Shown one piece after another: positions 31,902-49,985 of a stretch of DNA of 64,000 nt. The stretch lies in the NCBI GenBank assembly GCA_963712745.1, contig CAVQJC010000017.1, forward strand, positions 128,001-192,000, written 5' to 3'. Under the pieces are notes generated by a model. It did not search any database, was not told the DNA's origin, and saw only the letters and a program-made list of their open reading frames with translations. The first letter of the stretch is position 1; every line of letters begins with the position of its first letter. Source of the stretch: an uncultured Chloroflexia bacterium. Its GTDB lineage: Bacteria; Chloroflexota; Limnocylindria; Limnocylindrales; CSP1-4. The translations under genes were made by a program, and so were the position numbers.

Positions 31902-31979
31902 TAGCGGGAGGCAGCGAGACGCGGTCCACACCCTGGCCGCCTGGACCGCGCCGAGCCACTGGCGAACCCGGCCCGCCTA
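31902..31979 (+). ncRNA. c-di-GMP-II-like riboswitch (copy 2)
   Basis: GCGGGAGGCAGCGAGA-CGCGGTCC..GGCCGCCT-GGACCGCG-CCGAGCCACTGGCGAACCCGGCCCGC; perfect inner stem. Confidence 0.75.
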
Positions 31980-31995
31980 GCAGAGGGGGTAGGCG

Positions 31996-32442
31996 ATGCA
32001 GCACATGCGTGAAGAGGTACGAGTGGAGGCACCCGTCGAGCACGTCTGGAAGTTCTACTGCGACACATCGAACTGGCCTGACTTCATGCCACGGGCCAAG
32101 TGTTCGGATTTCAGCGGGCCGCTGGACAAGGTCGGGACGACGTACGTCGGGGGCATGCGGCTGATGGGCTACGAGTTCAAGACGACCTACGAGATAGTCG
32201 AGGTCGAGCCGCAGCGGCTCATCCACGAACACACCGACGACGGTCCCATGGACAACTACTGGCGGTTCGACTCCGACGGCGATGCGACCAAGGTCGTCAT
32301 CGAGTCCGACTACGAGATGCCGGGCAAGGTGCCGGGCTTCATCAAGGACCTCATGAGCAAAGCCTGGATCGAGCGGAACATGCGCCAGTCGCTGGCCGAC
32401 TTCAAGGCCCTCGCCGAGGCGAAGGTCCCGGCGCACGCCTAG
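31996..32442 (+). CDS. SRPBCC/polyketide cyclase-family protein
   Basis: VEAPVEHVWKF..NWPDFMP..LADFKALAE. Confidence 0.85.
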   Translation: MQHMREEVRVEAPVEHVWKFYCDTSNWPDFMPRAKCSDFSGPLDKVGTTYVGGMRLMGYEFKTTYEIVEVEPQRLIHEHTDDGPMDNYWRFDSDGDATKVVIESDYEMPGKVPGFIKDLMSKAWIERNMRQSLADFKALAEAKVPAHA

Positions 32443-33937: not shown

Positions 33938-35617
33938 CTACGCCCTGGCCAGCTTCTTGTAGCGGATGCGGTGCGGCTGGTCGGCCGCTGTCCCCAACTC
34001 CTTGCGCCGGAAGGCCTCGTAGTCGCTCACGTTCCCCTCGAAGAAGCGCACTTGGGAATCGCCCTCGAAGGCGAGGATGTGGGTCGCGATCCGGTCGAGG
34101 AACCAGCGGTCGTGGGAGATGACCACGACGCAGCCCGGGAACGACTCCAGGCCGGCCTCGAGCGCTCGCAGCGTGTCCACGTCGAGGTCGTTGGTCGGTT
34201 CGTCGAGCAGCAGCACGTTGCCACCCGTCTGCAGCAGCTTGGCGAGGTGCACCCGGTTCCGCTCGCCACCCGACAGTTGGCCGACGAGCTTCTGCTGGTC
34301 GGTGCCACGGAAGTTGAACGATGAGACATAGGCGCGGGCCGGGACCTCGCGTGCCCCGGTCTTGATGAACTCGGCACCCTGGGTGATCTCCCCGAATACC
34401 GTCTTGTCGGCGGCCAGGTCGTCGCGCTCCTGGTCGACATAGCTCAGCGCGACGGTGTCACCGATCGCGATCGACCCGGCGTCGGGTGCCTCCTGCCCGA
34501 CGAGCATCCGGAACAGCGTCGTCTTGCCGGCGCCGTTGGGTCCGATGATCCCGACGATGCCGGCCCGCGGCAGCGAGAACGTCAGGTCCTCGATGAGCAG
34601 CTTCTCGCGGTAGCCCTTGCGCAGGCCGGCGACATCGATGACCTTGTCACCGAGCCGCGGCCCCGGGGGGATGGCGATCTCGAGCTCGCGGGCGCTGGCC
34701 TTGTCGTCGTTCGCCTCGGCCAGGAGTCGCTCGTAGGCTGACAGTCGAGCCTTGCCCTTGGCCTGACGCGCCTTCGCACCCATGCGCACCCATTCGAGCT
34801 CGCGCGCGAGCGTCCGCTGCCGGGCATCGACCTGCTTCTGCTCGGTCGCCAGCCGCGCGAGCTTCTGCTCGAGCCAGCTCGAGTAGTTGCCACTGAACGG
34901 GATGCCGCGGCCCCGGTCGAGCTCAAGGATCCACTTGGCCACGTTGTCGAGGAAGTATCGATCATGGGTGATGGCGACGACGGTACCGGCGTATTCGGAC
35001 AGGAAGCGCTCCAGCCATTCGACCGACTCGGCATCGAGGTGGTTCGTCGGTTCGTCGAGCAGCAGCAGGTCCGGGTGGCGCATGAGCAGTCGTGCGAGCG
35101 CCACGCGGCGCTTCTCGCCGCCGGAGAGCGTCCTGACGTCGGCGTCGTCGGGCGGGCAACGGAGCGCGTCCATCGCGATGTCGACGTTGCGCTCGAGGTT
35201 CCACGCGTCCGCGGCTTCGATGCGGTCCTCGAGGACCGCCTGCTCGGCGCCGATCGCGTCGTAGTCGGCGTCGGGATCGGACCAGCGGGCCATGACCGCG
35301 TTGTACTGGTCGATGAGCGACTGGACCTCGCGGACGCCGTCGAGCACGTTGCCCTTGACGTCCTTCGCGGAGTCGAGCCCGGGCTCCTGCTCGAGGTATC
35401 CGACGGTGAAGCCCGGGGTCAGCCGAGCCTCGCCGTTGTAGCCGTCGTCGAGCCCGGCCATGATCTTGAGCAGGCTCGACTTGCCGGCGCCGTTGGGCCC
35501 GATGACCCCGATCTTGGCGCCGGGATAGAAGGACAGCGAGATGTCCTCCAGCACGGTCCGGTCGGGCGGATAGTGCCGGGCGAGCTTGTACGCGGTGTAG
35601 ATGAATTCGGCTGGCAT
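33938..35617 (-). CDS. ettA: energy-dependent translational throttle ABC-F protein EttA
   Basis: ISLSFYPGAKIGVIGPNGAGKS, ELEWVR..KARQAKGKARL, LSGGERNRVHLAK, PHRIRYKKL. Confidence 0.96.
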   Translation of the reverse strand: MPAEFIYTAYKLARHYPPDRTVLEDISLSFYPGAKIGVIGPNGAGKSSLLKIMAGLDDGYNGEARLTPGFTVGYLEQEPGLDSAKDVKGNVLDGVREVQSLIDQYNAVMARWSDPDADYDAIGAEQAVLEDRIEAADAWNLERNVDIAMDALRCPPDDADVRTLSGGEKRRVALARLLMRHPDLLLLDEPTNHLDAESVEWLERFLSEYAGTVVAITHDRYFLDNVAKWILELDRGRGIPFSGNYSSWLEQKLARLATEQKQVDARQRTLARELEWVRMGAKARQAKGKARLSAYERLLAEANDDKASARELEIAIPPGPRLGDKVIDVAGLRKGYREKLLIEDLTFSLPRAGIVGIIGPNGAGKTTLFRMLVGQEAPDAGSIAIGDTVALSYVDQERDDLAADKTVFGEITQGAEFIKTGAREVPARAYVSSFNFRGTDQQKLVGQLSGGERNRVHLAKLLQTGGNVLLLDEPTNDLDVDTLRALEAGLESFPGCVVVISHDRWFLDRIATHILAFEGDSQVRFFEGNVSDYEAFRRKELGTAADQPHRIRYKKLARA

Positions 35618-35699
35618 GAGGCTAGGGTAGCGACCCTCCGCGGGGCAGCGCCTCGGGCTCGGTCGACACGGACCGTGCGCGTCCTCAGCCCGCCTGGCT

Positions 35700-35739
35700 C
35701 ATCCTCCGCGCCCCGGCCATCGGGTCAAGCGCCGGACGG
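35700..35739 (-). promoter_or_regulatory. conserved minus-strand promoter module (upstream of ettA)
   Basis: TTGACC-N16-GAGGAT on the minus strand. Confidence 0.5.
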
Positions 35740-35755
35740 ACCTGGGTCCCGCCTG

Positions 35756-35800
35756 GCCATGGCGGCGACGACCAGACCAAACCCGCTATTCATTATGTTT
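35756..35800 (+). repeat. array core element copy 5 (right end diverged)
   Basis: GCCATGGCGGCGACGACCAGACCAAACCCGCTATTCATTATGTTT. Confidence 0.85.
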
Positions 35801-35840
35801 GCTGAAGCCAGCCGACCCCTGTGCTAGTCCTCGCTCGCGC

Positions 35841-36473
35841 CTACCCCTCGACGGGCAGGAACTCGAAGGTCTCGGCGATGGAGAGCCAGTCGGGGTTGGG
35901 AGCCTCCTCGCCACCACACGTGATGCCGTAGATCGTCGAGTCGTCCTGCAGCAGGAACTGCGTGCCCGCGAACGGTGTGGGTCAGTCTGGATCGACGAAG
36001 GTGTGATCGATGCGAACCGCCTCGCCCGCTGGAAGCGTCACGACGGTAACCGTCGCGCCGCCAGGGTATCGATCGTCGGCCTGGAGGCGGGCGACGTGCT
36101 CTGCCACCAGTGAGTCGAGTGGGACGATCGCAGCCATGACCTCGACCCCGCAGTAGCCTGGGACTTCCTGGGGGCCCACGTACGGCATCGCCAGGACGGG
36201 TGACTCCTCGCTGACGGCCTCGTAGAGCCAGCTGAGATCAGCGGCATAGGTCGAGTCGGTCACGTTGCTGAGCATCTCGCCTAGCGAGCCGGCATCGAGC
36301 CCAGACCGGCGGACCCAAGCCCAATCATCGGGAAACGCCAGCGCGAAGCCAGCACCGGGCACCTCCACTCGACCACCCAGGCCAACCGGTCCGGGCGACG
36401 GTTCCCGTGCCACCACCCCAGTCCCTAGTACTAGGACCAGCAGCCCTGCCAGCAGTCCGACTCGCTTGCCCAC
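35841..36473 (-). pseudogene. family-II secreted protein with in-frame TGA at 35982
   Basis: GKRVGLLAGLLVLVLG..GGRVEVPGAGFALAFPDDW..LPAGEAVR..DPD*PTPF..ITC..PDWLSIAETFEFLPVEG*, same frame on both sides of the stop. Confidence 0.75.
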
Positions 36474-36499
36474 CACGTCCCCCATCCTGCTTGTCGTCA

Positions 36500-36549
36500 C
36501 ATCCTCTGCACCCCGCTCAGCGGGTCAAGGGCCGGACGGCCCGGCGGCG
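36500..36549 (-). promoter_or_regulatory. conserved minus-strand promoter module
   Basis: CATCCTCTGCACCCCGCTCAGCGGGTCAAGGGCCGGACGGCCCGGCGGC. Confidence 0.55.
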
Positions 36550-36568
36550 TGACGGAGCTGGAGCGCGA

Positions 36569-36863
36569 TCAGTCCGGATCGAACGAAGCGGCGAGCGTCT
36601 GGAGCGCGGTTACCGCATCAGGGGCGTTGGAGGCCCGCCGATCACCGGACGGCCCCGAGGCCACGGCCTGCCACTCGCCGGATGGACGATCTCCCGAGCC
36701 ATCGGACGAGACGTAGTGCACGCCGGAACAGCACCCACCCATCAGGCAGCCGGTCCTCTGTTGCCAGCCAGGCGCTCGTCAGCCGATCGGGAACGGTCCC
36801 GTCTCGTCGGACCGTGGTCTGGCCGAACGCCGTCGCGACCGTCGCCAACTTCGCCCATACCAT
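36569..36863 (-). CDS. hypothetical protein (probable frameshift ~36725)
   Basis: MVWAKL..AWLATEDRLPDGWVL / GVHYVS..EWQAVASGPSG..ALQTLAASFDPD*; lies behind a promoter module. Confidence 0.35.
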
Positions 36864-36908
36864 CACGTCACCCCTGCCCGAGCGACCGGCACTCCCGGTC
36901 AGTACTCC

Positions 36909-36957
36909 CATAGTCCGCGCCTCGGTCAGCGGGTCAAGGGCCGGACGGCCCGGCGGC
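36909..36957 (-). promoter_or_regulatory. conserved minus-strand promoter module
   Basis: TTGACC-N16-GACTAT variant. Confidence 0.55.
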
Positions 36958-36964
36958 ATGCGTG

Positions 36965-37009
36965 GCCATGGCGGCGACGACGAGACCAAACCCGCTATAC
37001 ATGGCGATT
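36965..37009 (+). repeat. array core element copy 6
   Basis: GCCATGGCGGCGACGACGAGACCAAACCCGCTATACATGGCGATT. Confidence 0.9.
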
Positions 37010-37057
37010 CCGTGCGGCCCACTGGAGCTTCGTGGACGCCCGCGAGAGAATCGTCGT

Positions 37058-37134
37058 AGCGGGAGGCAATGACGCGCGGCCCCAGCCCTGGCCGCCTGGA
37101 CCGTGCCGAGTCACTGGCGGACCCGACCCGCGCT
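37058..37134 (+). ncRNA. c-di-GMP-II-like riboswitch (copy 3)
   Basis: GCGGGAGGCAATGA..GGCCGCCTGGACCGTGCCGAGTCACTGGCGGACCCGACCCGC. Confidence 0.75.
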
Positions 37135-37149
37135 TGTGAGGGGGATGTC

Positions 37150-38031
37150 ATGCGTACGTTGCGGCTGTCCCTGGTCGGGACGGTCATCGTGATGCTGCTC
37201 GGCGGGCTGGGCAGCACGGTGCTCGCGCACGATGAGATGCCTGGCGTCGGCGTCGAGGTCTTGGGCGACCTCGGCGCCATCCCAGGCGAGGCCATCCCCG
37301 AGGACGCCGTCCGTGTCGCGTTCGCTCGGACTAGCATCGAGCCGGGCGTGACCGGCGAGGTCGGCTCGGCCCAGCCCCATGAATGGGCCAGCCTGGAATG
37401 CGTCCAGCACGGTTCGCTCACGTTCACGGACAGCGACCGGACAGTGATCTGGCGGGTGGGCGAAACGACCGAGGACCTCCCCGCTGGGACGACCGCCAGC
37501 GTGAACACCGGGGATCTCGTGCTCTTCTATGACGGCGGGGCCGGGAGGAGTTTCGCGAACGCGGGGCCCGAGACGTACGTGACGTACTCCGTGGCGGTCG
37601 GCGACAGTGATGACCCGGCGGAGCCACCGGTCCTGCCCCCCGGCGTCTCCTGGCGGCTCCTCGTCTTCGACGTGCTGGCACCCGAGACCGTGGATCTCTG
37701 GTTCACGACACCGGTCGCGGTGGCGTTCGAGCGACTCGCGTTCTACCCCGGCGGCCAGCTCGTGCTTGGGTCTGACGAGGCCGGGTTGCTGCGCCTCCTG
37801 GCGCTCGAAGAAGGTCGCCTGGAGAGCGGCTTCGCGGCCCCATCCGAGGTCGCCGGGGCGCTGACCGACTCGGTCAGGTTCATCGCGCCCGACGCCGACA
37901 TTCTCACGTCGGGATCATTCGCGGACGACACGGTCTACGTGATCCGAAACGAGTCGGACGAGCCTGCGATTGTCCTGAGCGCCACGCTGACGCATGTTGA
38001 TGGGACCACGGAGGCCAAGCCCGCCGAGTAA
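37150..38031 (+). CDS. secreted protein, probable bicupin fold
   Basis: Signal peptide MRTLRLSLVGTVIVMLLGGL; two cupin-like halves (RTSIEPG..VQHGSLTF..N.GPE; RLAFYPG..EEGRL..RNESDEPA). Confidence 0.7.
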   Translation: MRTLRLSLVGTVIVMLLGGLGSTVLAHDEMPGVGVEVLGDLGAIPGEAIPEDAVRVAFARTSIEPGVTGEVGSAQPHEWASLECVQHGSLTFTDSDRTVIWRVGETTEDLPAGTTASVNTGDLVLFYDGGAGRSFANAGPETYVTYSVAVGDSDDPAEPPVLPPGVSWRLLVFDVLAPETVDLWFTTPVAVAFERLAFYPGGQLVLGSDEAGLLRLLALEEGRLESGFAAPSEVAGALTDSVRFIAPDADILTSGSFADDTVYVIRNESDEPAIVLSATLTHVDGTTEAKPAE

Positions 38032-38068
38032 CCCCATCGCGCCGCCTCGGCTGCCTGCCGCCCTGCCC

Positions 38069-38107
38069 CATCCTCCGCGCCCCGCTCAGCCGGTCAAGGG
38101 CCGGACT
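38069..38107 (-). promoter_or_regulatory. conserved minus-strand promoter module (orphan, faces the end of a + gene)
   Basis: CATCCTCCGCGCCCCGCTCAGCCGGTCAAGGGCCGGAC. Confidence 0.5.
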
Positions 38108-38201
38108 GACTGGTGGCATGGGTGGCGGCAGGCTACCCGGCATCACGTGGTCCCTTCGGCACTGTCGGTCCGAGTGGACACCTCGGTATCGTCGAGCCGC
38201 C

Positions 38202-38516
38202 ATGGCGGACCCGCTGGAGCCTGACACGCGGCCGGACGAGCCGCACATCACAAACCCATCGATGCGCGAGGCGGAAGAGCCGGACCTAGCGCGCGTGGCC
38301 GAGGAGTGGAGGCGAGAGACACGCCAAGCGAAGGACCAGCGGAACGCCGAAACCGAGGAGTGGCTGAAGGCGTTCGAGGCCAAGCATGAGAACCCGAGGG
38401 ACACCTTCCTCGGGCTGCTACTGCATGGTTGCTGTTGGTGGTCCCTCATGAGAATGGCGTGCGCCACCCTGCTGGTCGTGTTCGTCGCAGCTTGGGCCCG
38501 GCGTGCGAGGGGGTAG
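38202..38516 (+). CDS. small hypothetical protein with C-terminal TM
   Basis: Charged N-terminus, hydrophobic C-terminus; ends just before core copy 7. Confidence 0.45.
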   Translation: MADPLEPDTRPDEPHITNPSMREAEEPDLARVAEEWRRETRQAKDQRNAETEEWLKAFEAKHENPRDTFLGLLLHGCCWWSLMRMACATLLVVFVAAWARRARG

Positions 38517-38545
38517 CACCTCATCGCGCCGCCTCGGCTACCTGC

Positions 38546-38590
38546 GCCATGGCGGCGATGACCAGACATAACCCGCTATTCATGGCGATT
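38546..38590 (+). repeat. array core element copy 7
   Basis: GCCATGGCGGCGATGACCAGACATAACCCGCTATTCATGGCGATT. Confidence 0.92.
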
Positions 38591-38609
38591 CTGGAGTAGT
38601 GGTCAGTGG

Positions 38610-39791
38610 CTAGCCCGCCTCGGCGGGCAGGAACTCGAACGAGTCGGCGATGGAGAGCCAGCGGTCGTCGAAGCCGTGGTAGCCAAAGCAGCCAATCAGA
38701 GCTTCGGGGCCGTCGGTAGCGAGAGCGGTCTCGAAATCGATCAAGAACGTCGAGTTGTACGTCGCCCTGCCGGTGTCCGCTCGGGTGACGTAGTCGATGC
38801 GGTGAGACGGGCCGGCCGGCAGCATCAGCTCCGACACGGTCGGCCCCTCGGCCAGCCCAGGGTCGCCTCTCGCGTGATCGAGTGCGCCGGCGAGGACGTC
38901 ATCGAGCGAGCTGCCGACGGGCAGATCCGTGGATTGGACCAGGCACGTCGTGGCCGGCCACCCATCGGGCTCGACCGGTCCGAACACCAGGGCGTGGAAC
39001 GCGTACCCCTGGTCCGACAGCGCGCTCAGTTGCTCCAGCATCGTCGCGGTCGTATCGACCCAGCGCGGATGTGTCTGACGGACGAGGTCAAGGTTCTCCT
39101 CCGCGCTTGCCTCGTTCGGGTCAAGGATGACCCAGTCGTCCGGAAAGGTCAGTGCAAATCCTGGAGCGATAGCCTCCAGGCGACCGCCCATGCCGGCCGT
39201 GTCGCGGGGGCGGAGCCACTCGAGTGACTCGGCGATAGCGCGCCACCTATCCGGGGTCGGATGCGGACCTTCACACGTGAGGATGACGCTCCAGGCATCA
39301 CCGCCGATCATGAAGCCCTCGCGGTAGAGCGCCACCTCGTCCGTGTCTGGCGGCACGACCTGCCATCGATAAGTGACGGCGGGGCCGGCCGGGAGCTCGG
39401 TCTGCGAAATGCCCTCGTACGCATGGACACTGGGCTCTGCCCTGATGGCCGCATCCAGCCCTCCGTAGAACCCCGGGTCGAGGACCTCTTCTCCGTCCCA
39501 CGGGACCACGTCCAGATCGCAAGCGTCGCCCGATGGCGACATCAGGAAGAGTTCTGACTCAGTCTCCTCATCGAGCAGGCCGACCTGCGCGCCGGCGGCC
39601 TGCAACTGGGCGTCGAGTTCCACGGTGAGGTCGAAGGCGATCCAATCGGTCGGGATCGATACGGCGATGCCGTGCCTGGGCATCTCCACGCGCCCACCGA
39701 ACCACGGTGGAGGCTGCGACTCTGACGCCACCACCCCAGACCCCAACGACAGAACCATCAGTAGCGCCAGCAACCCGACTCGCCTGCCCAT
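38610..39791 (-). CDS. family-II secreted protein, tandem domain
   Basis: Signal peptide; GGRVE..P.DW..LPAGP..LTC..DRW..IAES twice; ends DRWLSIADSFEFLPAEAG. Confidence 0.8.
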   Translation of the reverse strand: MGRRVGLLALLMVLSLGSGVVASESQPPPWFGGRVEMPRHGIAVSIPTDWIAFDLTVELDAQLQAAGAQVGLLDEETESELFLMSPSGDACDLDVVPWDGEEVLDPGFYGGLDAAIRAEPSVHAYEGISQTELPAGPAVTYRWQVVPPDTDEVALYREGFMIGGDAWSVILTCEGPHPTPDRWRAIAESLEWLRPRDTAGMGGRLEAIAPGFALTFPDDWVILDPNEASAEENLDLVRQTHPRWVDTTATMLEQLSALSDQGYAFHALVFGPVEPDGWPATTCLVQSTDLPVGSSLDDVLAGALDHARGDPGLAEGPTVSELMLPAGPSHRIDYVTRADTGRATYNSTFLIDFETALATDGPEALIGCFGYHGFDDRWLSIADSFEFLPAEAG

Positions 39792-39799
39792 AACGTCTC

Positions 39800-39846
39800 C
39801 ATCCTCCGCGCCCCGCGCCGCGGGTCAAGGGCCGGACGGCCCGACG
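39800..39846 (-). promoter_or_regulatory. conserved minus-strand promoter module
   Basis: TTGACC-N16-GAGGAT a few nt before ATG 39791. Confidence 0.55.
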
Positions 39847-39891
39847 GCCATGGCGGCGACGACCAGACCAAACCCGCTATTCATGGCGATT
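39847..39891 (+). repeat. array core element copy 8
   Basis: GCCATGGCGGCGACGACCAGACCAAACCCGCTATTCATGGCGATT. Confidence 0.92.
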
Positions 39892-39960
39892 TCGGAGTCG
39901 CGTTCGCGCCAGCGTGCTGACTGCGTTGGTGACCCCTCACGCTTGGCCTGATGCCCGCGC

Positions 39961-40350
39961 TCAGCGGTAGCCGAGGACGAGCGTTAAGAACAACAACAGG
40001 ATGACGAAGAAGCTCACGGCGGCGAGGACGAAGCTCACGAGACCGACGATCAACCACGCCCCGAGGCCATGGAGCCCCATTCGACGACCGGTCCCGAGGA
40101 TCACCAGCGGGACCAGGATCAGCCCAAGTAGCCCCAACCCGAGCCCGAGGTCGATACCTGCCGCTGAGTCCACCACGGCACCGACTCCGGAGAGCAGGAA
40201 CCAGGCGCCGATGAGCGTAGCCGTGGCCAGGACAGTGGTCGCCGATGCTGCCTTGGAGCGGTCCCGGAGCGCGTTGTACAGCCCCTCGCCCACCCAGCCG
40301 TACAGCCTCAAGTCATCACTCACGGCACCGCTCCCCGCGATGGTCTGCAT
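39961..40350 (-). CDS. small membrane protein (3 TM)
   Basis: Hydrophobic ORF between core copies, behind a promoter module. Confidence 0.6.
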   Translation of the reverse strand: MQTIAGSGAVSDDLRLYGWVGEGLYNALRDRSKAASATTVLATATLIGAWFLLSGVGAVVDSAAGIDLGLGLGLLGLILVPLVILGTGRRMGLHGLGAWLIVGLVSFVLAAVSFFVILLLFLTLVLGYR

Positions 40351-40380
40351 CGCGATCAGGTTTGTGCCCGACCATCCGCC

Positions 40381-40420
40381 CATCCTCCGCGCACCGGCCA
40401 GTGGGTCAAGGGCCGGACGG
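40381..40420 (-). promoter_or_regulatory. conserved minus-strand promoter module
   Basis: CATCCTCCGCGCACCGGCCAGTGGGTCAAGGGCCGGACGG. Confidence 0.55.
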
Positions 40421-40428
40421 CATGCATC

Positions 40429-40473
40429 GCCATGGCGGCGACGATCAGACATAATCAGCTGTACATGGCGATT
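40429..40473 (+). repeat. array core element copy 9
   Basis: GCCATGGCGGCGACGATCAGACATAATCAGCTGTACATGGCGATT. Confidence 0.9.
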
Positions 40474-40522
40474 CTCGATTGGCGCTCGAGAGCCGATGGA
40501 CGCCCGCGAGAGAATCGCAGGT

Positions 40523-40593
40523 AGCGGGAGGCGATGAGACGCGGCCGAGCAATGTCCGCCTGGACCGCCCGAGCCACTGGCCAACCCGGCCCG
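40523..40593 (+). ncRNA. c-di-GMP-II-like riboswitch (copy 4, partly degenerate)
   Basis: GCGGGAGGCGATGA..CCGCCTGGACCGCCCGAGCCACTGGCCAACCCGGCCCG; one pseudoknot pair broken. Confidence 0.6.
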
Positions 40594-40613
40594 AGGATGA
40601 GAGGGGGGACTTC

Positions 40614-41150
40614 ATGCGCACGTTGCGGCCGTCACTGGCGGCGATCATCATCTTGGTGCTGGCCATGACATCGGGCAGCGCGGTCTTGGCCCAGTCGGAC
40701 GACGCGCCTGCCGCCTGGGTCGAAGCGACGAGCATCGCGCATCCCTGCGTCGGACTCGGGGAACCCGAGGAGTACATCGAGGAGACGCACGTGACCCGTC
40801 TCCGAGGCTCGGCTCTCGACTGCAGCATGGACCTTGGCGACGCCCGCCTGAAGGGCACTGCGGATATGAGCTGGAACTACGACTGCTACGACGCGGTCGG
40901 GGCCGGCTGCGTGCGTTGGGGCTCCGTGGTGCTGACTGGGCCCGATGGCACATGGGAGGGTACGTTCAGCGGCGTAGAGAGCCCCGCAGGGTCCGGTGCT
41001 TCCTTCTCTGCTGAGTACATCGAGCTCGCGGGCAGGGGTGCCTACGATGGGCTTGCGTACGTGGGTCAGGCAGCCAACCAGTTCAGCACTTCTGGACGGT
41101 GGTTCGGCATCGTGTACGAAGGCGAGTTGCCGTCTCCGTCCGCCGAGTAG
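40614..41150 (+). CDS. family-I secreted protein
   Basis: MRTLRPSL signal peptide; DARLKG..G.W.G..LAGRGAYDGL..GIVYEGELP. Confidence 0.8.
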   Translation: MRTLRPSLAAIIILVLAMTSGSAVLAQSDDAPAAWVEATSIAHPCVGLGEPEEYIEETHVTRLRGSALDCSMDLGDARLKGTADMSWNYDCYDAVGAGCVRWGSVVLTGPDGTWEGTFSGVESPAGSGASFSAEYIELAGRGAYDGLAYVGQAANQFSTSGRWFGIVYEGELPSPSAE

Positions 41151-41198
41151 TCGCATCGCGTCGCCTCGGCTGCTTGCGGCTCAGGATCGGCGTGCATA

Positions 41199-41243
41199 GC
41201 CACGGCGGCGACGACCAGACCAAACCCGCTATACATGGCGATT
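41199..41243 (+). repeat. array core element copy 10
   Basis: GCCACGGCGGCGACGACCAGACCAAACCCGCTATACATGGCGATT. Confidence 0.92.
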
Positions 41244-41260
41244 CCTGTTAGCGAGTCGGG

Positions 41261-42394
41261 TCAGGTCGGCAGTTCGGCCAGCACGTCCTCGATGGCCATC
41301 CCACCGCTGCCACTGACGATGAACAGGACACCGCGAACGGTATACATGAACGACCACGTCGAACCGTCATCCGCCTCCTCCGCGTCATCCGTCCAGACGG
41401 TACGTTCACCGTAGGTCCGAGTCGGCCACTCCGAGAGCGGCGGGGTCACAGAGGTGCCCATCTCGCTGCGCATGATCTGTACCAGTTGCTCCATCACGAC
41501 TACGGGCGGGACTCCAGCAACTCGGATGGCCTCAACGACGTACTGCTCCGGCACCGACCGGTCAGCCGTACGCGCATGTGCCACCTGCAGGTCCCTGAAC
41601 TCCTGTCCGAGGTCGGAGATCAAGCGTCGGAACAACCGGCGAGCGTCTTCCTCGGTCAGCACCAGAGACGAGCTGCTCTCGACGGACAGCGGAGTATCGC
41701 CGATCACGTGCGGCAGCAGGGAGATCACCTGGTCGGACGGGAGCGGCAGGGTCTCGACGGTCTCGGCGATGGAGAGCCAGTCGTCGTCGGGGCGTTGGAA
41801 AGCTGAGCACGTCATCGTCAAGATGTCGCCGCCGACGTCGATCAGATACATCGTGACGGGGCCCCAGACGTCACGGTCGTAGGCATTCTGGGCGGTCGCT
41901 CGAAGTACCAGACCGGGACCGGTCGGCACGTCCACCGGCATCGGCGGGTCGGCATCCACCATCGACTCCGCGTCCACCATCGTCTGGTACAGACCTTCGG
42001 CGAAGGCATCGAGCCGCCAGCCTTCCCCGAGCCTTGGATAGAACAAGCAGCTCTCCGTCTCCGCGAGGGAGCACACTGAGGACGAGAGGTCCATACCCAA
42101 TAGCGGGAAGGATCCCTCAGCGGCCAAGAGCGAGAGGTTCATGTGCAGGCACGAGAGCCCAGCTGCAGTCAGTCCACCATCAGGCGAGTCCATGGCGCGG
42201 ACCTGTGAGTCGATGTCGGCGCCAGGGTCGAACGCCACCCAGCCCTCGGGGAGGGTGACCGCGAAGCCGTACTCAGCGATCTCCACGCGCCCGCCCATCC
42301 ACGGCGGAGGCGAGGCATCCTCCGCCCGCGCGGACCCGAATACAGTCGCCAGCAGACTGACCACAAGCAGCGCCACGCTCGCCAGCTGTCGCAT
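41261..42394 (-). CDS. secreted fusion protein: family-II + family-III domains
   Basis: GGRVE..GFAVTLPEGW..DDWLSIAETVE then LLPHVIGD..EAIRVAG..IEDVLAELP. Confidence 0.8.
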   Translation of the reverse strand: MRQLASVALLVVSLLATVFGSARAEDASPPPWMGGRVEIAEYGFAVTLPEGWVAFDPGADIDSQVRAMDSPDGGLTAAGLSCLHMNLSLLAAEGSFPLLGMDLSSSVCSLAETESCLFYPRLGEGWRLDAFAEGLYQTMVDAESMVDADPPMPVDVPTGPGLVLRATAQNAYDRDVWGPVTMYLIDVGGDILTMTCSAFQRPDDDWLSIAETVETLPLPSDQVISLLPHVIGDTPLSVESSSSLVLTEEDARRLFRRLISDLGQEFRDLQVAHARTADRSVPEQYVVEAIRVAGVPPVVVMEQLVQIMRSEMGTSVTPPLSEWPTRTYGERTVWTDDAEEADDGSTWSFMYTVRGVLFIVSGSGGMAIEDVLAELPT

Positions 42395-42417
42395 TCTCGT
42401 ACCTGTGCGGATGCCCT

Positions 42418-42464
42418 CATCCTCCGCGCCCCGCTCAGCGGGTCAAGGGCCGGACGGCCCGGCG
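42418..42464 (-). promoter_or_regulatory. conserved minus-strand promoter module
   Basis: CATCCTCCGCGCCCCGCTCAGCGGGTCAAGGGCCGGACGGCCCGGCG. Confidence 0.55.
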
Positions 42465-42509
42465 TCCATGGCGGCGACGACCAGACATAACCCGCTATAC
42501 ATGGCGATT
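42465..42509 (+). repeat. array core element copy 11
   Basis: TCCATGGCGGCGACGACCAGACATAACCCGCTATACATGGCGATT. Confidence 0.92.
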
Positions 42510-42530
42510 CGTACCGTCCGCTCGGCCGAG

Positions 42531-43136
42531 CTACGCTCCGGCGGGCAGGAACTCGAAGGTCGCGGCGATGGACAGCCAGTCATCCTCGGGTGCTCCTCGC
42601 GAACAGCCGAGGAAGTACCACCGGTGTCCATCACCGAAGAGGTACATAGCGTATCGGTCAGCGGTCTCCAGCGACGCCCAGTCGGGGTACCCGCCGGGCT
42701 CGCCCCAGAAGTTCGCGTCTGAGGGCACCAGGTCCATGGTGACCCGTCCGACGCGTCCAGCCGGCAGGTCGATGACCGCGCCGGTGACGTTCCTGGCGGC
42801 GAGACTGTCGTCCCATCGCGAGACCAACGCATCGAGCCAGTCGTCAATCGACTCGACCGGCAGGACCGGCTCAACGACGGACGAGTCAAAGACCTCACAG
42901 TAGCCACCCGGCCCCGAGGAGGTCAGGCCCGGCAAGTACGGGGGGTGATCCAGCATCCCAATGACCTCCCACCCGTCGGGGAAGGCGATGGCGATTCCCA
43001 GATCCGGGAAGGTCCGGATGGTGGCGGCAGGCTGCCCCGTCACCTCCGGGCTCGCCGACGGTGACTGCGCCGTGATGGCGCTCGACGTCGTGGCTAGGAG
43101 ACACGCCACCGCAACCGAGATGATGAGCCGTCGCAT
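42531..43136 (-). CDS. family-II secreted protein
   Basis: Signal peptide; GIAIAFPDGW..LPAGRVGR..LGC..DDWLSIAATFEFLPAGA. Confidence 0.8.
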   Translation of the reverse strand: MRRLIISVAVACLLATTSSAITAQSPSASPEVTGQPAATIRTFPDLGIAIAFPDGWEVIGMLDHPPYLPGLTSSGPGGYCEVFDSSVVEPVLPVESIDDWLDALVSRWDDSLAARNVTGAVIDLPAGRVGRVTMDLVPSDANFWGEPGGYPDWASLETADRYAMYLFGDGHRWYFLGCSRGAPEDDWLSIAATFEFLPAGA

Positions 43137-43161
43137 GATCGACTCCCGTGCGCGATGCCCC

Positions 43162-43210
43162 CATCCTCTCCGCCCCGCTCAGTGGGTCAAGGGCCGGACG
43201 GCCCGGCGGC
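43162..43210 (-). promoter_or_regulatory. conserved minus-strand promoter module
   Basis: CATCCTCTCCGCCCCGCTCAGTGGGTCAAGGGCCGGACGGCCCGGCGGC. Confidence 0.55.
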
Positions 43211-43218
43211 GTGCCATC

Positions 43219-43265
43219 GCCATGTACGGGCGATGACCAGACCAAACCCGCTATTCATGGCGATT
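43219..43265 (+). repeat. array core element copy 12
   Basis: GCCATGTACGGGCGATGACCAGACCAAACCCGCTATTCATGGCGATT. Confidence 0.9.
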
Positions 43266-43377
43266 CTCGCTTGGGGCGGAGTTCGCAGCAACGGCTCGTG
43301 GGACGCCTGCGCCTCGAGAATCGTCTACCTGGTACAGGCGGGATCGACTCGTCAGCGTGAGAATCGAGGGAGAGACC

Positions 43378-43899
43378 ATGGGAACGATCAGGATCGGCAT
43401 CATCACGCTCCTCACCATCGGCCAGCTGGCGGGCTCAGCGGTCAGTGTCGCAGCGCAGGACGATGAAGCCGTCGTCGTGAGCGGGGGCATGAGTCCGATT
43501 GGCGGCGCGAGCGTGCCGTGCGAGCTGGAGGAGGATTTCACCGAACTCGACGACGGCACGGCCAGCTGGACCTGGTGCTTCGGTCTCGTGATGGACGATC
43601 CACGGCTCACCGGCGACGGCTCCGTCGTCATGGCTGAGCGGGCGTACGACGGCTTCGGCCTGATCTCCTCGAGGGTGGAGATAGCCAACGAAGGAGGGTC
43701 GTGGTCGGGCAACGGCACCAGGGTCTTCATCGACGGAGATCCGGGGATCGATATCGAGCAACTCGTACTCACCGGGGCCGGTGGATATGGCGGCCTGACG
43801 GCCATCCTCTATGCCGATCCGGAGTTCGGCTTCCGCGGATTGGACTCGTGGAACGGCGTCATCATCTCGGGCGAGATGCCAGGACTACCTGCCGAGTAG
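43378..43899 (+). CDS. family-I secreted protein
   Basis: Signal peptide; DDPRLTG..GGSWSG..LTGAGGYGGL..GVIISGEMP. Confidence 0.8.
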   Translation: MGTIRIGIITLLTIGQLAGSAVSVAAQDDEAVVVSGGMSPIGGASVPCELEEDFTELDDGTASWTWCFGLVMDDPRLTGDGSVVMAERAYDGFGLISSRVEIANEGGSWSGNGTRVFIDGDPGIDIEQLVLTGAGGYGGLTAILYADPEFGFRGLDSWNGVIISGEMPGLPAE

Positions 43900-43905
43900 A
43901 CCCCT

Positions 43906-43957
43906 CGCGCCACCTCCGCCTCGGCGGGCAGGAACTCGAAGGTCTCGGCGATGGAGG
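43906..43957 (-). pseudogene. short 3'-end remnant of a family-II gene
   Basis: Encodes SIAETFEFLPAE immediately after the stop codon of the 43958 gene. Confidence 0.6.
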
Positions 43958-44557
43958 CTATGGCAGTTCGGCCAGCACGTCCTCGATGGTCGGTTCGGTC
44001 GGTGCGTCGGGGTCAGAGCCAACGCGACCAAGCCGCACTCTGAACAGGACCTCGCCCTTCGGGTAGAGGTACTCGATGAAGCGGTCGTCGGCGCCATCGA
44101 AGGTAACGACCACGACGCGGCGGTCACCGATGTCCTGCCAGTCCATAGCGGCCACTGGCAGTTGGTCGGCGACAGCTTGGGACTCGCGTCGCAACCCCTC
44201 GAACACGCCTGCCCAGAAGTCTGCCGCCTGAGCACCCACGATGCGTGTCGCCTCGATACTCAGGAACCGGTCTCCTTCCGGGTGAACTCCATAGCCGCCT
44301 GCGGCTCTGACATCCTCCGGCTCCAGTCCGAGTGGCACCAAGACATCACGCCAGCCTGCGGTCCACTCCGCATCGGCGGAAGAGACAGCCGAGAAGTCCA
44401 GGATGGACAGGTCGATGTCCCCGACCTGTGACGGGATGATGGACGCCAAGTCATCGGGTGCGAACGGCGGCGTGGCCTCCGCTGACGGCGACTGAGCCAA
44501 CGCCCCAGACCCCAGCGACAGAACCATCAGCCCTGCCAATAGCCCGGCTCGCTTCAC
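43958..44557 (-). CDS. family-III secreted protein
   Basis: KRAGLLAGLMVLSLGSG signal peptide; IIPSQVGD..EATRIVG..IEDVLAELP. Confidence 0.78.
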   Translation of the reverse strand: MKRAGLLAGLMVLSLGSGALAQSPSAEATPPFAPDDLASIIPSQVGDIDLSILDFSAVSSADAEWTAGWRDVLVPLGLEPEDVRAAGGYGVHPEGDRFLSIEATRIVGAQAADFWAGVFEGLRRESQAVADQLPVAAMDWQDIGDRRVVVVTFDGADDRFIEYLYPKGEVLFRVRLGRVGSDPDAPTEPTIEDVLAELP

Positions 44558-44584
44558 GGCTCCACCCCTCCTGCGGATGCCGCT

Positions 44585-44633
44585 CATCCTCCGCGCCCCG
44601 AGCCCCGGGTCAAGGGCCGGACGGCCCGGCGGC
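44585..44633 (-). promoter_or_regulatory. conserved minus-strand promoter module
   Basis: CATCCTCCGCGCCCCGAGCCCCGGGTCAAGGGCCGGACGGCCCGGCGGC. Confidence 0.55.
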
Positions 44634-44640
44634 ACGCTCA

Positions 44641-44685
44641 GCCCTGGCGGCGACGACCAGACATAACCCGGTATTCATGGCGATT
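44641..44685 (+). repeat. array core element copy 13
   Basis: GCCCTGGCGGCGACGACCAGACATAACCCGGTATTCATGGCGATT. Confidence 0.9.
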
Positions 44686-44733
44686 CCGTGCGGCCCACTG
44701 GAGCCTCGTGGACGCCCGCGAGAGAATCGTCGT

Positions 44734-44810
44734 AGCGGGAGGCAAAGACGCGCGGCCCCAGCCCTGGCCGCCTGGACCGTGCCGAGTCACTGGCGGACCC
44801 GACCCGCGCT
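44734..44810 (+). ncRNA. c-di-GMP-II-like riboswitch (copy 5)
   Basis: Identical to copy 3 except AATGA>AAAGA. Confidence 0.7.
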
Positions 44811-44825
44811 TGTGAGGGGGATGTC

Positions 44826-45359
44826 ATGCGTACGTTGCGGCTGTCCCTGGTCGGGACGGTCATCGTGATGCTGCTCGGCGGGCTGGCTGGAGCGGTGCTT
44901 GGCGCAGGACGAGGAGGAAGCGCCCGTATGGGTGACCCTCCTCGCGCAGGAGAACTGCCGGATGGAGGCGGACCCCGGCACCTACGAGCCAGGCGCAGGA
45001 CGCGCCAAGAAGATCCGCGACCTGCCCCTCGCTTGCGACCTCACCTACAGCGATGCCCGCCTTAGCGGGCCGAGCCACATGCTCTACAACGAGGACTGCT
45101 TCGAGTCGGGCATCTGCGTCGGGTGGGGGACCATCGGATCGACGGCTCCGACGGATCGTGGACCGGGTGGTGGCACGAGATCGACGACGAGGACGACGAT
45201 ACGAGCTTCCACATCGTGCTGACCGGCGACGGCGGTTACGAGGGACTCACCGCCATCATCTACTCACTCGGGGTCTGGGAAACGTTCCCCGACGAGTACG
45301 GTGTCATCTACCGGGGCGATCCGCCGCCAGGTCCCGAGGTGCTGTTGACTGCTGAGTAG
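44826..45359 (+). CDS. family-I secreted protein with two compensating frameshifts (~44900, ~45131)
   Basis: MRTLRLSLVG.. / AQDEE..SDARLSG..YNEDC / DGSWTG..LTGDGGYEGL..GVIYRGDPP. Confidence 0.7.
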
Positions 45360-45586
45360 CAGATCACCAGGCGACCGCGCCACGCTCACCGCCGCGAGCG
45401 AGATCCATACAGGGATAGACACCGATACGACGGTCATCTACCCCTGCTCGAGCTGAGCCGCACCGACATCGACCCCACGGCGCCCTGAGAACAGCACCGC
45501 CACCCTGGAGCAGCACTTCCCGCTGCCGCGTTCATGACCTCCGCCTCTTGAACCGAGCGGTACTGCTGTGGCCTCATACCCATCTG

Positions 45587-45663
45587 AGCGGGAGGCGATG
45601 AGGCACGGCCCACACCCTGGCCGCTGGGACCGCGTCCGAGCCACTGGCGAAACCGGCCCGCGC
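45587..45663 (+). ncRNA. c-di-GMP-II-like riboswitch (copy 6)
   Basis: GCGGGAGGCGATGA..GGCCGCTGGGACCGCGTCCGAGCCACTGGCGAAACCGGCCCGC. Confidence 0.7.
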
Positions 45664-45679
45664 AGCAAAGGGGGATGTC

Positions 45680-46579
45680 ATGCGGACGTTGCGACTGTCC
45701 CTGTCGGTGACGGTCATCTTGGCACTGCTGAGCGGACTGGGCAGTGCGGTCGTGGCTCAGTCGGAGGAGCCGAACCAACAGAGCGCGTGGCCGAGCCTCA
45801 CGACGTCCCTCGAGTACGGCGAAGACCCAAAGCAGGTTATCCATGCCTACGAGCCAGAGCCTCGGACCGCGCCACGGCCCGCCGTCGTCTTCTTCTCCGG
45901 CGGCGGATACGACATCGGGGATCCGCTGTGGGTCCTCGACTCTGCACGCCAGATGGCCGAGGCTGGCTACGTGGCCTTTGCGGCGGGCTACCGCCTCCAC
46001 GATCCGTCGACGGGCACGAACCCATGGCCGGCACAACTCGAGGATGCCCAGGCAGCGGTCCGCTGGATCCGCGCTCACGCGGCGGACTACGGCGTCGACC
46101 CCGACCGGATCTGCGCCCTCGGCCATTCCTCCGGTGGCCACCTCGCGTCGCTGGTCGGCATGACCGATGCCCGCGACACGAGTGACCCTGACATGGCGGG
46201 CATCTCGAGCCGCGTCACCTGCGTCGTCAGCGTCTCGGGCGACGTCGACCTCACGATCGGCAACCCGTACCCGGAGCAGACGGCGGTCTACGAGAGCCTG
46301 CTGGGCGCCAGCTACGAGGATGACCCCGCCGCGTGGCGTGCGGTCTCGCCCGCCTACCTCGTCGATGCGGAGACCGTGCCCATCCTCATCATCCACGGCA
46401 CCCGCGACACCAACGTCGACGTTCAGGCGTCCCGGAACCTGGCGGCAGCCCTCGCCGAGGTCGACCGGGAGTTCGTCTACGCCGAGATAGACGCCGACCA
46501 CTTCGACATCTTCGAGCAGCCCCCGACCCTGCCGCTCACCGAGACGTTCCTCGTCTACCAACTCCATCCAGAGGAGTGA
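45680..46579 (+). CDS. secreted alpha/beta hydrolase (esterase/lipase)
   Basis: MRTLRLSL signal peptide; SGGGY, WPAQLED, GHSSGG nucleophile, HGTRD, H. Confidence 0.9.
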   Translation: MRTLRLSLSVTVILALLSGLGSAVVAQSEEPNQQSAWPSLTTSLEYGEDPKQVIHAYEPEPRTAPRPAVVFFSGGGYDIGDPLWVLDSARQMAEAGYVAFAAGYRLHDPSTGTNPWPAQLEDAQAAVRWIRAHAADYGVDPDRICALGHSSGGHLASLVGMTDARDTSDPDMAGISSRVTCVVSVSGDVDLTIGNPYPEQTAVYESLLGASYEDDPAAWRAVSPAYLVDAETVPILIIHGTRDTNVDVQASRNLAAALAEVDREFVYAEIDADHFDIFEQPPTLPLTETFLVYQLHPEE

Positions 46580-46762
46580 TGACCGACCGGTCGATGGCGG
46601 CTCGATGGACGGCGAACCCAGAGCGAGTTGAAGAGATACGCGGCGCCAGCGCAAGCGCACCCGGCTGGAGCGTGGGCCGAGACCAAGGAGTAGGCGAGAG
46701 CTAGGAGTCGGCGACCAGCCGTGCCCACCGGCTGATTCGCTCGCGCCGCCTCGGCTGCCTGC

Positions 46763-46829
46763 GCCATGGCGACGACGACCAGACGTCGTACGCGTGGCGA
46801 CCAGACCAAGCCCGCTATACATGGCGATA
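46763..46829 (+). repeat. array core element copy 14 (internally duplicated)
   Basis: GCCATGGCGACGACGACCAGACGTCGTACGCGTGGCGACCAGACCAAGCCCGCTATACATGGCGAT. Confidence 0.85.
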
Positions 46830-46865
46830 CGCCGGGTCGGCAGGTCAAGCGCGATACGGCCGCGC

Positions 46866-47840
46866 CTACTCCTCGGCGGGTCGGAACTCGAACGTCTCGG
46901 CGATGGACTGCCAACGATCCTGAGGGGCTGCAACCCCGAAGCAAGTAAGGGAGTAGTAGGACGTCCCGTCGGTCACGAGGTAGGCGCTCCTCTCGAGGTT
47001 CGCGCCCTCATCCACGTCATCGATGCGGACAGCCGAACCGCTGGGCAACTCGATGGCGGTCGTGGCTAGCGTCGCAGGCGCCGACCGGAACATGGCGATG
47101 AACGCCTCCACGAAGCCCTCGAGGTCGCTCCACGCCACGTCGGCGTGGCGTCCGTGGGGCCAGTACCAAGCACGGCAGGTGTCCTCGCCCGGCATGAACG
47201 CCAGCATCACCATCTGGCCCGTGGTGGTCGGCCTGTCTTCCCGCGTGAATACGACTGACCAGTCCTCGGGGAGGGTGAGCGCGAAGCCCGCTTCGGGCAC
47301 CCAGCCTCGCAAGCGACGTTCCAGGTTCGTCGGCTGGTCCTGCCGAAGCGGGTCGATAGCGATCGAGTTCGCGATAGACAGCCAGCGATCGGTCGGCGGG
47401 TCGGTGCTGGTGCAGGTCAGCACGCGATAGGACGAGCCGACCTCCCAGTAGTAGCTCGTCACCAGGTACACACCATCGGGCCCATAGTCCTGCCACGCCT
47501 CGGTGCGAAGGGCCGCTCCCTGCGGGGTCGCGACTGTCACGGCGGAGGCGGCGGCAGGACCGCCTCCTTGCTCGACCAACGCGGCCAGGCAAAGGGTCTC
47601 ATCGGTGTCGTACAGCGTGAGCAATGGCGTCACATCGCCTCGCGTGGTCAACTCGTACGGATCGCCGGGCGTGGCCTCCCAGAGGTGCGGCGGGACGACC
47701 CAGAGCCCGGAGCCCAGGCTCTCGACACGACCTGCGGACCAGAACGTCGCTTCGGTCGTTGGTGTCGGCGACTGCGCGGCCACACCATTCGCAACCATCG
47801 CGAGGGTCAGCCCGGCCAGCATTCCAGATCGTCTGCGCAT
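46866..47840 (-). CDS. family-II secreted protein, tandem domain
   Basis: Signal peptide; LTC..DRWLSIANS then GFALTLPEDW..LPSGSAVR..LTC..DRWQSIAETFEFRPAEE. Confidence 0.8.
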   Translation of the reverse strand: MRRRSGMLAGLTLAMVANGVAAQSPTPTTEATFWSAGRVESLGSGLWVVPPHLWEATPGDPYELTTRGDVTPLLTLYDTDETLCLAALVEQGGGPAAASAVTVATPQGAALRTEAWQDYGPDGVYLVTSYYWEVGSSYRVLTCTSTDPPTDRWLSIANSIAIDPLRQDQPTNLERRLRGWVPEAGFALTLPEDWSVVFTREDRPTTTGQMVMLAFMPGEDTCRAWYWPHGRHADVAWSDLEGFVEAFIAMFRSAPATLATTAIELPSGSAVRIDDVDEGANLERSAYLVTDGTSYYSLTCFGVAAPQDRWQSIAETFEFRPAEE

Positions 47841-47849
47841 CACTTGCCC

Positions 47850-47898
47850 CATCCTCGCCTGCCGGCTCAGTCGGTCAAGGGCCGGACAGCCCGGCGGC
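47850..47898 (-). promoter_or_regulatory. conserved minus-strand promoter module
   Basis: CATCCTCGCCTGCCGGCTCAGTCGGTCAAGGGCCGGACAGCCCGGCGGC. Confidence 0.55.
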
Positions 47899-47905
47899 AT
47901 GCATC

Positions 47906-47945
47906 GCCATGGTGCCGACGACCAGACGGCGTACGCCTGGCGAGT
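47906..47945 (+). repeat. array core element copy 15 (short terminal variant)
   Basis: GCCATGGTGCCGACGACCAGACGGCGTACGCCTGGCGA. Confidence 0.75.
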
Positions 47946-48020
47946 GGAGGAGCTCGAGACGCGAAGACGCGGCACCCCTCCACGGAATGCCGCGCCGTCG
48001 TCCGCGAGTGACTGCCGGAA

Positions 48021-48998: not shown

Positions 48999-49008
48999 GA
49001 TGCGCCCC

Positions 49009-49965: not shown

Positions 49966-49985
49966 CGGGGGTTCTCTTCCTCCTG

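Follow-up and report, generated by a model that had tools for sequence, protein, structure and literature searches.

A block of 211 bases is shared by the leaders of two unrelated genes in a 64,000-nucleotide stretch of a draft Chloroflexota genome, and probably represents a recent gene-conversion tract between two paralogous leaders, a reading to which a probability of about 0.8 is assigned. The stretch, referred to here as the window, is G000:C17:128001-192000, where G000 is the source genome and C1-C20 are its contigs, and positions are given in window numbering unless a contig is named. Each leader contains a predicted cyclic diguanylate (c-di-GMP) riboswitch of a variant class and the start of a signal peptide. 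Leader A, together with the bicupin-like gene that it heads (37150-38031), is referred to as A, and leader B, together with a gene of a predicted beta-barrel family (44826-45359), is referred to as B. The genome is a metagenome-assembled draft of 4.22 Mb in 20 contigs, 84.55% complete and with 5.03% contamination.

The two copies of the block, 37000-37210 and 44676-44886, align without gaps and are identical at 209 of 211 bases, the only mismatches being 37029/44705 (T/C) and 37070/44746 (T/A), and the longest exact stretch is 139 nt. The leaders lie 7,676 bases apart in direct orientation. Identity falls to 76 of 95 bases (~80%) in the upstream flank (36905-36999 against 44581-44675) and to 10 of 30 bases (~33%) in the downstream flank (37211-37240 against 44887-44916), and a repeat search recovers the pair as a family, D4, of 300 nt at 94% identity. 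The left edge of identity falls within a repeated intergenic sequence, termed the core element, and the right edge, at 37210/44886, is the first base of codon 21, codons 1-20 reading MRTLRLSLVGTVIVMLLGGL. The initial annotation had described a near-identical block of 210 bp with two differing positions, beginning in the core element and stopping abruptly inside the signal peptide, and this description holds in both its extent and its edges. The right edge lies ~27 nt short of the point where all similarity between genes A and B ends, and the shape of the tract is as would be expected for a conversion limited by the extent of homology. An exact 35-mer from the block had no match in the metagenome contig collection.

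The similarity of A and B was set against that of 32 leaders of the signal-peptide type from the same genome, compared from the aptamer start to codon 20 (158 columns, 496 pairs). Leaders A and B are 99.4% identical, against a median of 61% and a 99th percentile of 85% over all pairs, and the only pair above them, C2_108374/C20_4101, belongs to a whole-gene duplicate. Chance is excluded, because the probability of at least 209 identical bases of 211 is 9e-13 even at a background identity of 85%, the 99th percentile of the leader pairs. When the leaders are placed on a maximum-likelihood tree, A and B group together with support of 99/98; the three bicupin leaders and the barrel leaders are not grouped by cargo, most other forks are weak, and 19 of 28 inner branches are open. 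Beyond the junction, A follows its paralog A2, a bicupin gene on C7, and B follows its paralog B2, a barrel gene on C4. The genealogy of the leaders thus disagrees with that of the cargos, the leaders of A and B lying together and their cargos apart.

The cargos themselves are unrelated, as the initial annotation had proposed for the two mature domains, and differ in fold; a search for close homology between the A and B families gave a BLASTP E-value of 0.022 over 36 amino acids and an hhalign probability of 0.43% (E 0.14). Gene A matches no Pfam family. An AlphaFold model built on a three-sequence alignment (predicted local distance difference test score (pLDDT) 75.0, predicted template modelling score 0.78) is all-beta and divided into two halves, and its top listed Foldseek matches are all bicupins, namely MncA (2vqa_A, E 3.5e-08), vicilins and oxalate decarboxylases. 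There are 232 matches at E<=0.001, yet the TM-scores are just 0.25-0.38. The model therefore supports, at the level of fold, a predicted bicupin of two cupin barrels, in agreement with the bicupin-like product first assigned to 37150-38031. A distant paralog at C10:172687-173535 scores 25.5 bits for Cupin_2, under the cut-off of 27.2 bits. The closest relatives of cargo A are encoded at C7:73231-74031 (77% amino acid identity) and C10:172765-173535 (39%); the family was found in two of 41 genomes, and neither the metagenome contig collection nor the genome contig collection held a relative. The sole relative outside the source genome among the 41 genomes, L022 (G008:C3:2018755-2019599, 44% amino acid identity), likewise has an RF03170 aptamer and an MRTLRLSL start ahead of it; a 1-nt gap breaks the frame of its signal peptide, and the match falls in two pieces.

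Gene B belongs to a family of ~170-190 amino acids whose members include 40614-41150, 43378-43899 and copies on C4, C7, C8, C15 and C2, its nearest relatives being the barrel genes of C4 and C7. A model of the 40614 product (pLDDT 75.9) is an eight-stranded barrel that best matches DUF3224 structures (2q03_A, TMt 0.74, E 4e-3; 2ooj), with E-values of 3e-3 to 4e-3 and none at E<=0.001, followed by allene oxide cyclases, dirigent proteins and AbyU-type cyclases; on this model the family may form a DUF3224/allene-oxide-cyclase-like barrel. The membership of the second cargo in this family, its family I, had been recognised in the initial annotation and stands, but as assembled the frame of gene B is broken twice. 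Its reading switches from the ATG frame to the +1 frame at 44899, after about 44898 in the former, and returns at about 45135 to the ATG frame, which then continues to the stop at 45357-45359; in comparison with paralogs, B has gained a T at 44899/44900 and lost one base near 45131-45136. On its own, the ATG frame meets a stop at 45063-45065. The GC content of third codon positions (GC3) is 0.59 in the ATG-frame open reading frame (ORF) and 0.83 in the +1 piece, against 0.80-0.88 in intact genes of the family. On balance gene B is a probable pseudogene as assembled, and a local polishing error at the repeat edge is a possible cause of the frame break.

Seven of the 32 signal-peptide-type genes headed by the riboswitch look frame-broken in a similar way, with a short ATG-frame ORF of low GC3 and a continuation of higher GC3 in another frame; the loci listed are C4:294934-296301, C10:43061-43174, C10:175135-175335, C20:286993-287325, C15:161485-161760 and window 44826-45359. 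The shift sits just past the signal peptide in at least B and C4_295717. Either a family evolving by birth and death or local errors of assembly at the edges of repeats would produce such a pattern.

Because all the leaders are homologous, they provide stretches of homology ahead of genes that are otherwise unrelated. The leaders of the barrel gene (B) and the bicupin gene (A) would have recombined, one replacing the other between the core-element edge and signal-peptide codon 20, near the end of the homology, and A and B would afterwards have shared one regulatory response and one export signal. Taken by itself, the event would be an ordinary gene conversion, and a clean case in which unrelated genes exchange a regulatory RNA along with its export signal. 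Among the titles and abstracts retrieved, none concerned gene conversion in riboswitch and signal-peptide leaders of paralogs.

Two further histories of the block do without conversion. In one, there was no recent exchange, and the leaders stay identical because the riboswitch, ribosome-binding site and signal peptide are under strong purifying selection; indeed, conservation of much of the aptamer, and of the ~25 nt that begin the signal-peptide coding sequence, extends over paralogs and over the species of the genus. The other leaders, however, work at their median identity of 61%, and A equals B at all 83 of the 83 columns (of 158) that vary among the other 30 leaders, a variable column being one with a consensus below 80% when A and B are left out, so constraint does not explain the identity of A and B. 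The 52 nt 5' of the aptamer, which are unalignable among most copies, also count against selection, which is scarcely credible as the explanation. In the other history, a leader was duplicated and inserted by illegitimate fusion before a gene that had no such leader. Fusions must have happened at some time, because the same leader precedes unrelated folds (bicupin, beta-barrel, alpha/beta hydrolase, periplasmic binding protein, rhodanese and META). At A and B, however, both flanks keep a lower level of homology, at 80% in the core element upstream and as signal-peptide similarity over ~27 nt downstream, and a fusion here is very improbable. Moreover, the closest paralogs of A (C7_74114 and C10_172588) and of B (C4_294836 and C8:47) already carry homologous leaders and signal peptides, so the event would have homogenised two existing homologous leaders and created no new fusion. 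Of the initial proposal, which was a recent conversion or swap of a whole expression and export module onto new cargo, conversion is thus supported by the tract against its flanks, by the variable columns and by the A + B clade, whereas the cargo was not new to such a leader.

If the block is a conversion tract, the transfer quite probably went from the barrel-gene lineage to the bicupin gene, because the block carries a signal peptide of the type found in other barrel-family genes. Over its 61 nt of signal-peptide coding sequence, the block has two differences from the barrel paralog C4_294836 but at least six, and a 9-nt gap, from the bicupin paralog C7_74114, and it also resembles the leaders of C8:47 and C8_11898. 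The intact barrel gene at C8:47 begins with MRTLRLSLVGTAILMLLGGLAGA..., a very similar signal peptide, and continues like B past the junction. The reverse transfer, in which the bicupin leader overwrote that of a decaying barrel gene B, is favoured by the intactness of A and the broken state of B, which would make the leader of A the one under selection, and by an aptamer base unique to A and B (the T in GAGTCACTGG) that occurs in no other copy; in view of the distance of the block signal peptide from the bicupin paralogs, this direction appears unlikely. No pre-event ortholog was found in 41 genomes or in the metagenome and genome contig collections. Several points weigh against the conversion as proposed. 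The leader tree leaves the A + B clade in an open polytomy and so gives no direction, which also leaves room for the reverse transfer; roughly the same distance separates the aptamer part from either lineage (16-19 differences by manual count); and a third, unassembled donor is possible because the genome is 84.55% complete. On the B side, no listed record among the Logan contigs, drawn from four runs of very low depth, bridges the junction at 44886 or covers the indels of B (the run search listed no RNA run, and none that contains more than 21% of the sampled words), so the assembly is the sole source for copy B, and the frame break 13 bases past the tract could mark a polishing or assembly problem at the repeat edge. 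Such an artefact, in which the leaders would really be more different or copy B would be chimeric at a confusing repeat, is also favoured by the draft state of the genome, by the long exact stretch within the block, by the several contig ends that fall in such riboswitch clusters, and by the second indel that follows the 1-base insertion in B by a further 240 bases. It is opposed by the two differences retained between A and B, which show that the copies were not simply collapsed, and by the topology of a two-copy direct repeat, which has one linear path and in which a wrong turn would delete the 7.7-kb middle without swapping cargos. Logan contigs also match copy A at both edges with no differences, X1 record 1 spanning 36943-37158 and X2 record 10 spanning 37140-37480 across the A-side junction. 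In addition, rpoB (1160 codons) and rpoC (1535 codons) are each a single open frame in the assembly, so indel errors are not common in it, and an artefact is very unlikely as the source of the block.

Both aptamers of the block match the c-di-GMP-II-GCG model RF03170 over its full length and above its gathering score of 47.9 bits, whereas the canonical c-di-GMP-II model RF01786 gives 38.8 bits for A and 37.1 bits for B, both under its cut-off of 53.5 bits. Each aptamer lies 5' of its gene on the same strand and ends 12 nt before the ATG, at 37150 in A and 44826 in B, with GAGGGGGA in between, and the placement of the ribosome-binding site directly after the aptamer recurs in most copies in the genome. 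Translational control is the simplest reading, because the aptamer ends so close to the ATG with the ribosome-binding site between them, and the most likely function of each leader is to control the start of translation by folding beside that site in response to a ligand. The 18-nt motif at 37034-37051 also occurs in other leaders that adjoin a core element, as seen in leader alignments, and may be a candidate -10 region or another part of a promoter. The block had been annotated as promoter, riboswitch and signal peptide; the riboswitch is borne out by RF03170, but a scan of 36600-38200 for promoters (sigma-70 consensus) and terminators returned no sites, which leaves the conserved 18-nt motif as the one promoter candidate in the block.

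The signal peptide of the block consists of MRTLR, LSLVGTVIVMLLGGLGSTVLA and HDE, with a mean Kyte-Doolittle hydropathy of 2.7 over 12 residues; neither a lipobox cysteine nor a twin-arginine motif was seen in it, and on its sequence it is predicted to be a Sec-type export signal. Signal peptides of the MRTLR type had also been noted at 40614 and 45680, and the ORF translations show them at both. An RNA hairpin in codons 6-11 (37167-37181) was considered as the cause of nucleotide conservation in the signal peptide and is not supported: in an alignment of 24 leaders the share of paired cells is 84.2%, compared with 80.9% after shuffling, a level that 23 of 500 shuffles attain, and the covariation score is reached in 50 of 500. 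Folding z-scores of the single sequence (0.44 for 37053-37215 and -0.50 for 37125-37215) are uninformative.

The core element at the left edge is ~90-105 nt long, contains the palindrome GGGCCGGACGGCCC and recurs 10-11 times in a 12-kb cluster at 35698-47952, with copies at about 35698, 36498, 36907, 38067, 39798, 40371, 42416, 43160, 44583 and 47848; the repeat search places 10 and 11 copies of its families D1 and D2 within 34000-50000. It gives 48 BLAST matches genome-wide, mostly between divergently transcribed secreted-protein genes. Its minus strand holds an ORF of 19-22 codons (M-N/Y-S-G-F/L-G/C-L-V-V-A-A-M...G-P-S-G-P), the start of which in copy A is the reverse complement of 37000-37002. 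This ORF is kept inconsistently, in only some of the 48 matches, several being shortened or running on and the changes being non-synonymous, and it is not convincingly coding. The coordinates of the features are collected in Table 1.

Table 1. Coordinates of the two leaders, their genes and related features, in window numbering.
Feature	Position	Strand	Details
c-di-GMP-II-GCG aptamer (RF03170)	31898-31982		64.4 bits
Core-element copy upstream of A	36907-36999		Repeat families D1/D2/D3; ~80% identical to the B-side copy
Block copy A, proposed conversion tract	37000-37210	+	209/211 identical to 44676-44886
18-nt motif GGACGCCCGCGAGAGAAT	37034-37051	+	Directly 5' of the aptamer; identical at 44710-44727
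c-di-GMP-II-GCG aptamer, copy A	37053-37137	+	RF03170, 58.2 bits, E 5e-08, model 1-85 of 85
Ribosome-binding site GAGGGGGA	37138-37145	+	Adjoins the 3' strand of P1 in the aptamer; the ATG follows after 4 nt
Gene A, predicted secreted bicupin-like protein	37150-38031	+	293 amino acids, codons 1-20 in the block; ORF, AlphaFold and Foldseek
Sub-threshold aptamer ahead of barrel gene 40614-41150 (MRTLRPSL...)	40518-40600	+	RF03170, 35.6 bits, E 0.0028
Core-element copy upstream of B	44583-44675		Repeat families D1/D2/D3
Block copy B	44676-44886	+	Near-identical to copy A
c-di-GMP-II-GCG aptamer, copy B	44729-44813	+	RF03170, 57.0 bits, model 1-85 of 85
Gene B, predicted secreted beta-barrel family	44826-45359	+	~175 amino acids, three frame pieces; family comparison and frame analysis
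c-di-GMP-II-GAG aptamer ahead of BD-FAE/alpha-beta-hydrolase gene	45582-45667	+	RF03169, 56.1 bits
Second recent duplicate, aptamer and esterase gene	45587-46800	+	99.0% identical to C7:68310-67097

Four aptamers of the window exceed their Rfam gathering scores (31898-31982, 37053-37137, 44729-44813 and 45582-45667), and the last of these heads the gene at 45680-46579 (MRTLRLSLSV...), which matches Pfam PF20434 with an E-value of 1.4e-41. The barrel gene at 43378-43899 has a core element upstream (43160-43899), yet no aptamer match even at E<=10, unlike its neighbours. Across the genome, RF03170 gives 48 matches at E<=0.01, 44 at E<=1e-4 and 32 over the cut-off, and RF01786 matches 37 of the same places, none of which reaches its own cut-off. 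A start codon and a G-rich ribosome-binding site lie within reach of 43 of the 48 aptamers, and 32 of these 43 genes encode an N-terminus that is strongly hydrophobic and resembles a signal peptide or an anchor; by manual count, at least 12 products begin with MRTLR or MRTLC. Pfam families among the products include the BD-FAE esterase, Peripla_BP_4, rhodanese, META, BNR/sortilin and DUF4886, and many products have no family. Aptamers also precede genes for cytoplasmic products, namely SRPBCC (3), Methyltransf_11 (5), GNAT and Fer4, and because SRPBCC and Methyltransf_11 genes are among them the regulon is not purely secretory. The three SRPBCC or polyketide-cyclase-like products, of 147-148 amino acids, belong, with their aptamers, to the loci at window 31898-32439, C20:43232-43778 and C17:38397-38951. 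The genome contains eight GGDEF domains, and c-di-GMP signalling is therefore present.

The aptamer was found in 23 of 24 other genomes of the genus, with 1-30 copies each, and in none of 16 genomes of the sister family with small genomes. In a draw of 151 genomes from the class, 47 possess the aptamer (the source genome included), all in two families, f1 (24 of 44) and f4 (22 of 50); in this draw, which includes the unpublished genomes G158 and G132, the counts per genome cannot exceed the 27 candidates scored. The source genome carries 48 copies, whereas no other genome searched had more than 30. The best match of a conserved gene near the leaders (33938-35617), at 76%, is in an Acidimicrobiaceae metagenome-assembled genome, a match on which the host would probably be an uncultured member of the Acidimicrobiia.

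The aptamers agree with the Rfam c-di-GMP-II variants RF03170 and RF03169 (clan CL00127) in their full-length matches over the cut-offs, their position in the 5' untranslated region on the strand of the gene, and the ribosome-binding site directly after them. None in the genome reaches the cut-off of the canonical model RF01786, and their copy number here is far higher than in the other genomes searched in the class. The GCG and GAG variants are reportedly set apart by altered binding-site bases, and to our knowledge no ligand has been validated for them. GEMM-I riboswitches, which respond to c-di-GMP or cyclic GMP-AMP, precede many genes for extracellular proteins in Geobacter and clostridia, and the present set is similar in that a genome holds many copies of one aptamer class of the second-messenger type, most of them ahead of exported-protein genes. 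In contrast to GEMM-I regulons, nucleotide conservation here joins the aptamer to the first ~20 codons of a single type of signal peptide, and this pair of aptamer and signal peptide recombines as a unit or internally. In Borrelia, conserved 5' 'upstream homology' regions consisting of a promoter and a leader peptide are common to unrelated lipoprotein genes, and concerted evolution and gene conversion occur in bacterial multigene families. The likeness to both lies in a 5' segment for regulation and export that stands before divergent mature regions, in sharp-edged tracts of near-identity, and in pseudogenes among intact copies, whereas the present segment, unlike that of Borrelia, contains a riboswitch and nothing here suggests antigenic variation. 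The name of the c-di-GMP-II variant appears in a list of riboswitch classes (PMC12452182).

Recombination at the leaders is not confined to A and B. The esterase gene and its aptamer form a second recent duplicate with C7, and the differences within this pair are concentrated in the 5' half of the aptamer; further upstream the two copies are unrelated, with a leader of the core type in C7 and one of another kind in the window, which puts one breakpoint within the aptamer. The segment 43229-43919 is also 98.4% identical to C7:69143-68454. This segment and the esterase duplicate (45587-46800) are 1667 nt apart in the window and 144 nt apart in C7, and gene B and its divergent neighbour sit between them in the window. 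Breakpoints thus fall in three places, namely the core element, the aptamer and the signal peptide, and the leaders act repeatedly as recombination substrates. A riboswitch-led gene of 441 amino acids without a Pfam family is present in two copies, C2:107034-108458 and C20:2761-4185 (98.4% identical over 1591 nt), one of them near a contig start. Contig ends that fall in riboswitch clusters are C8:3, C4:296977, C7:76076, C10:175348 and C2:231719.

A broader and tentative proposal is that the leader of riboswitch and signal peptide might be a portable homology cassette, placed before dozens of unrelated genes for predicted secreted proteins, through which recombination would repeatedly re-deal cargos among expression sites and homogenise their regulation, with decayed copies such as B serving as donors and the whole set forming the regulon of one c-di-GMP-II-GCG/GAG variant ligand. 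The context is of greater weight than the event itself: ~45 c-di-GMP-II variant aptamers occur in one 4.2-Mb draft, two thirds of them head genes for predicted secreted proteins, and many are joined to one signal-peptide type. With bicupins, beta-barrels, an esterase, a binding protein, a rhodanese, SRPBCC proteins and methyltransferases among its products, this large regulon could help to identify the ligand and to learn what these bacteria remodel at the cell surface.

The riboswitch-led genes of the plus strand alternate with minus-strand genes of a second predicted secreted family, located at 35982-36500, 38610-39791, 41261-42394, 42531-43136, 43958-44569 and 46866-47840, for which there is no Pfam match. 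Its members carry PPPW.GGRVE near the N-terminus or D.W.SIAE.FE.LP near the C-terminus, and those of 393 and 377 amino acids look like internal duplications.

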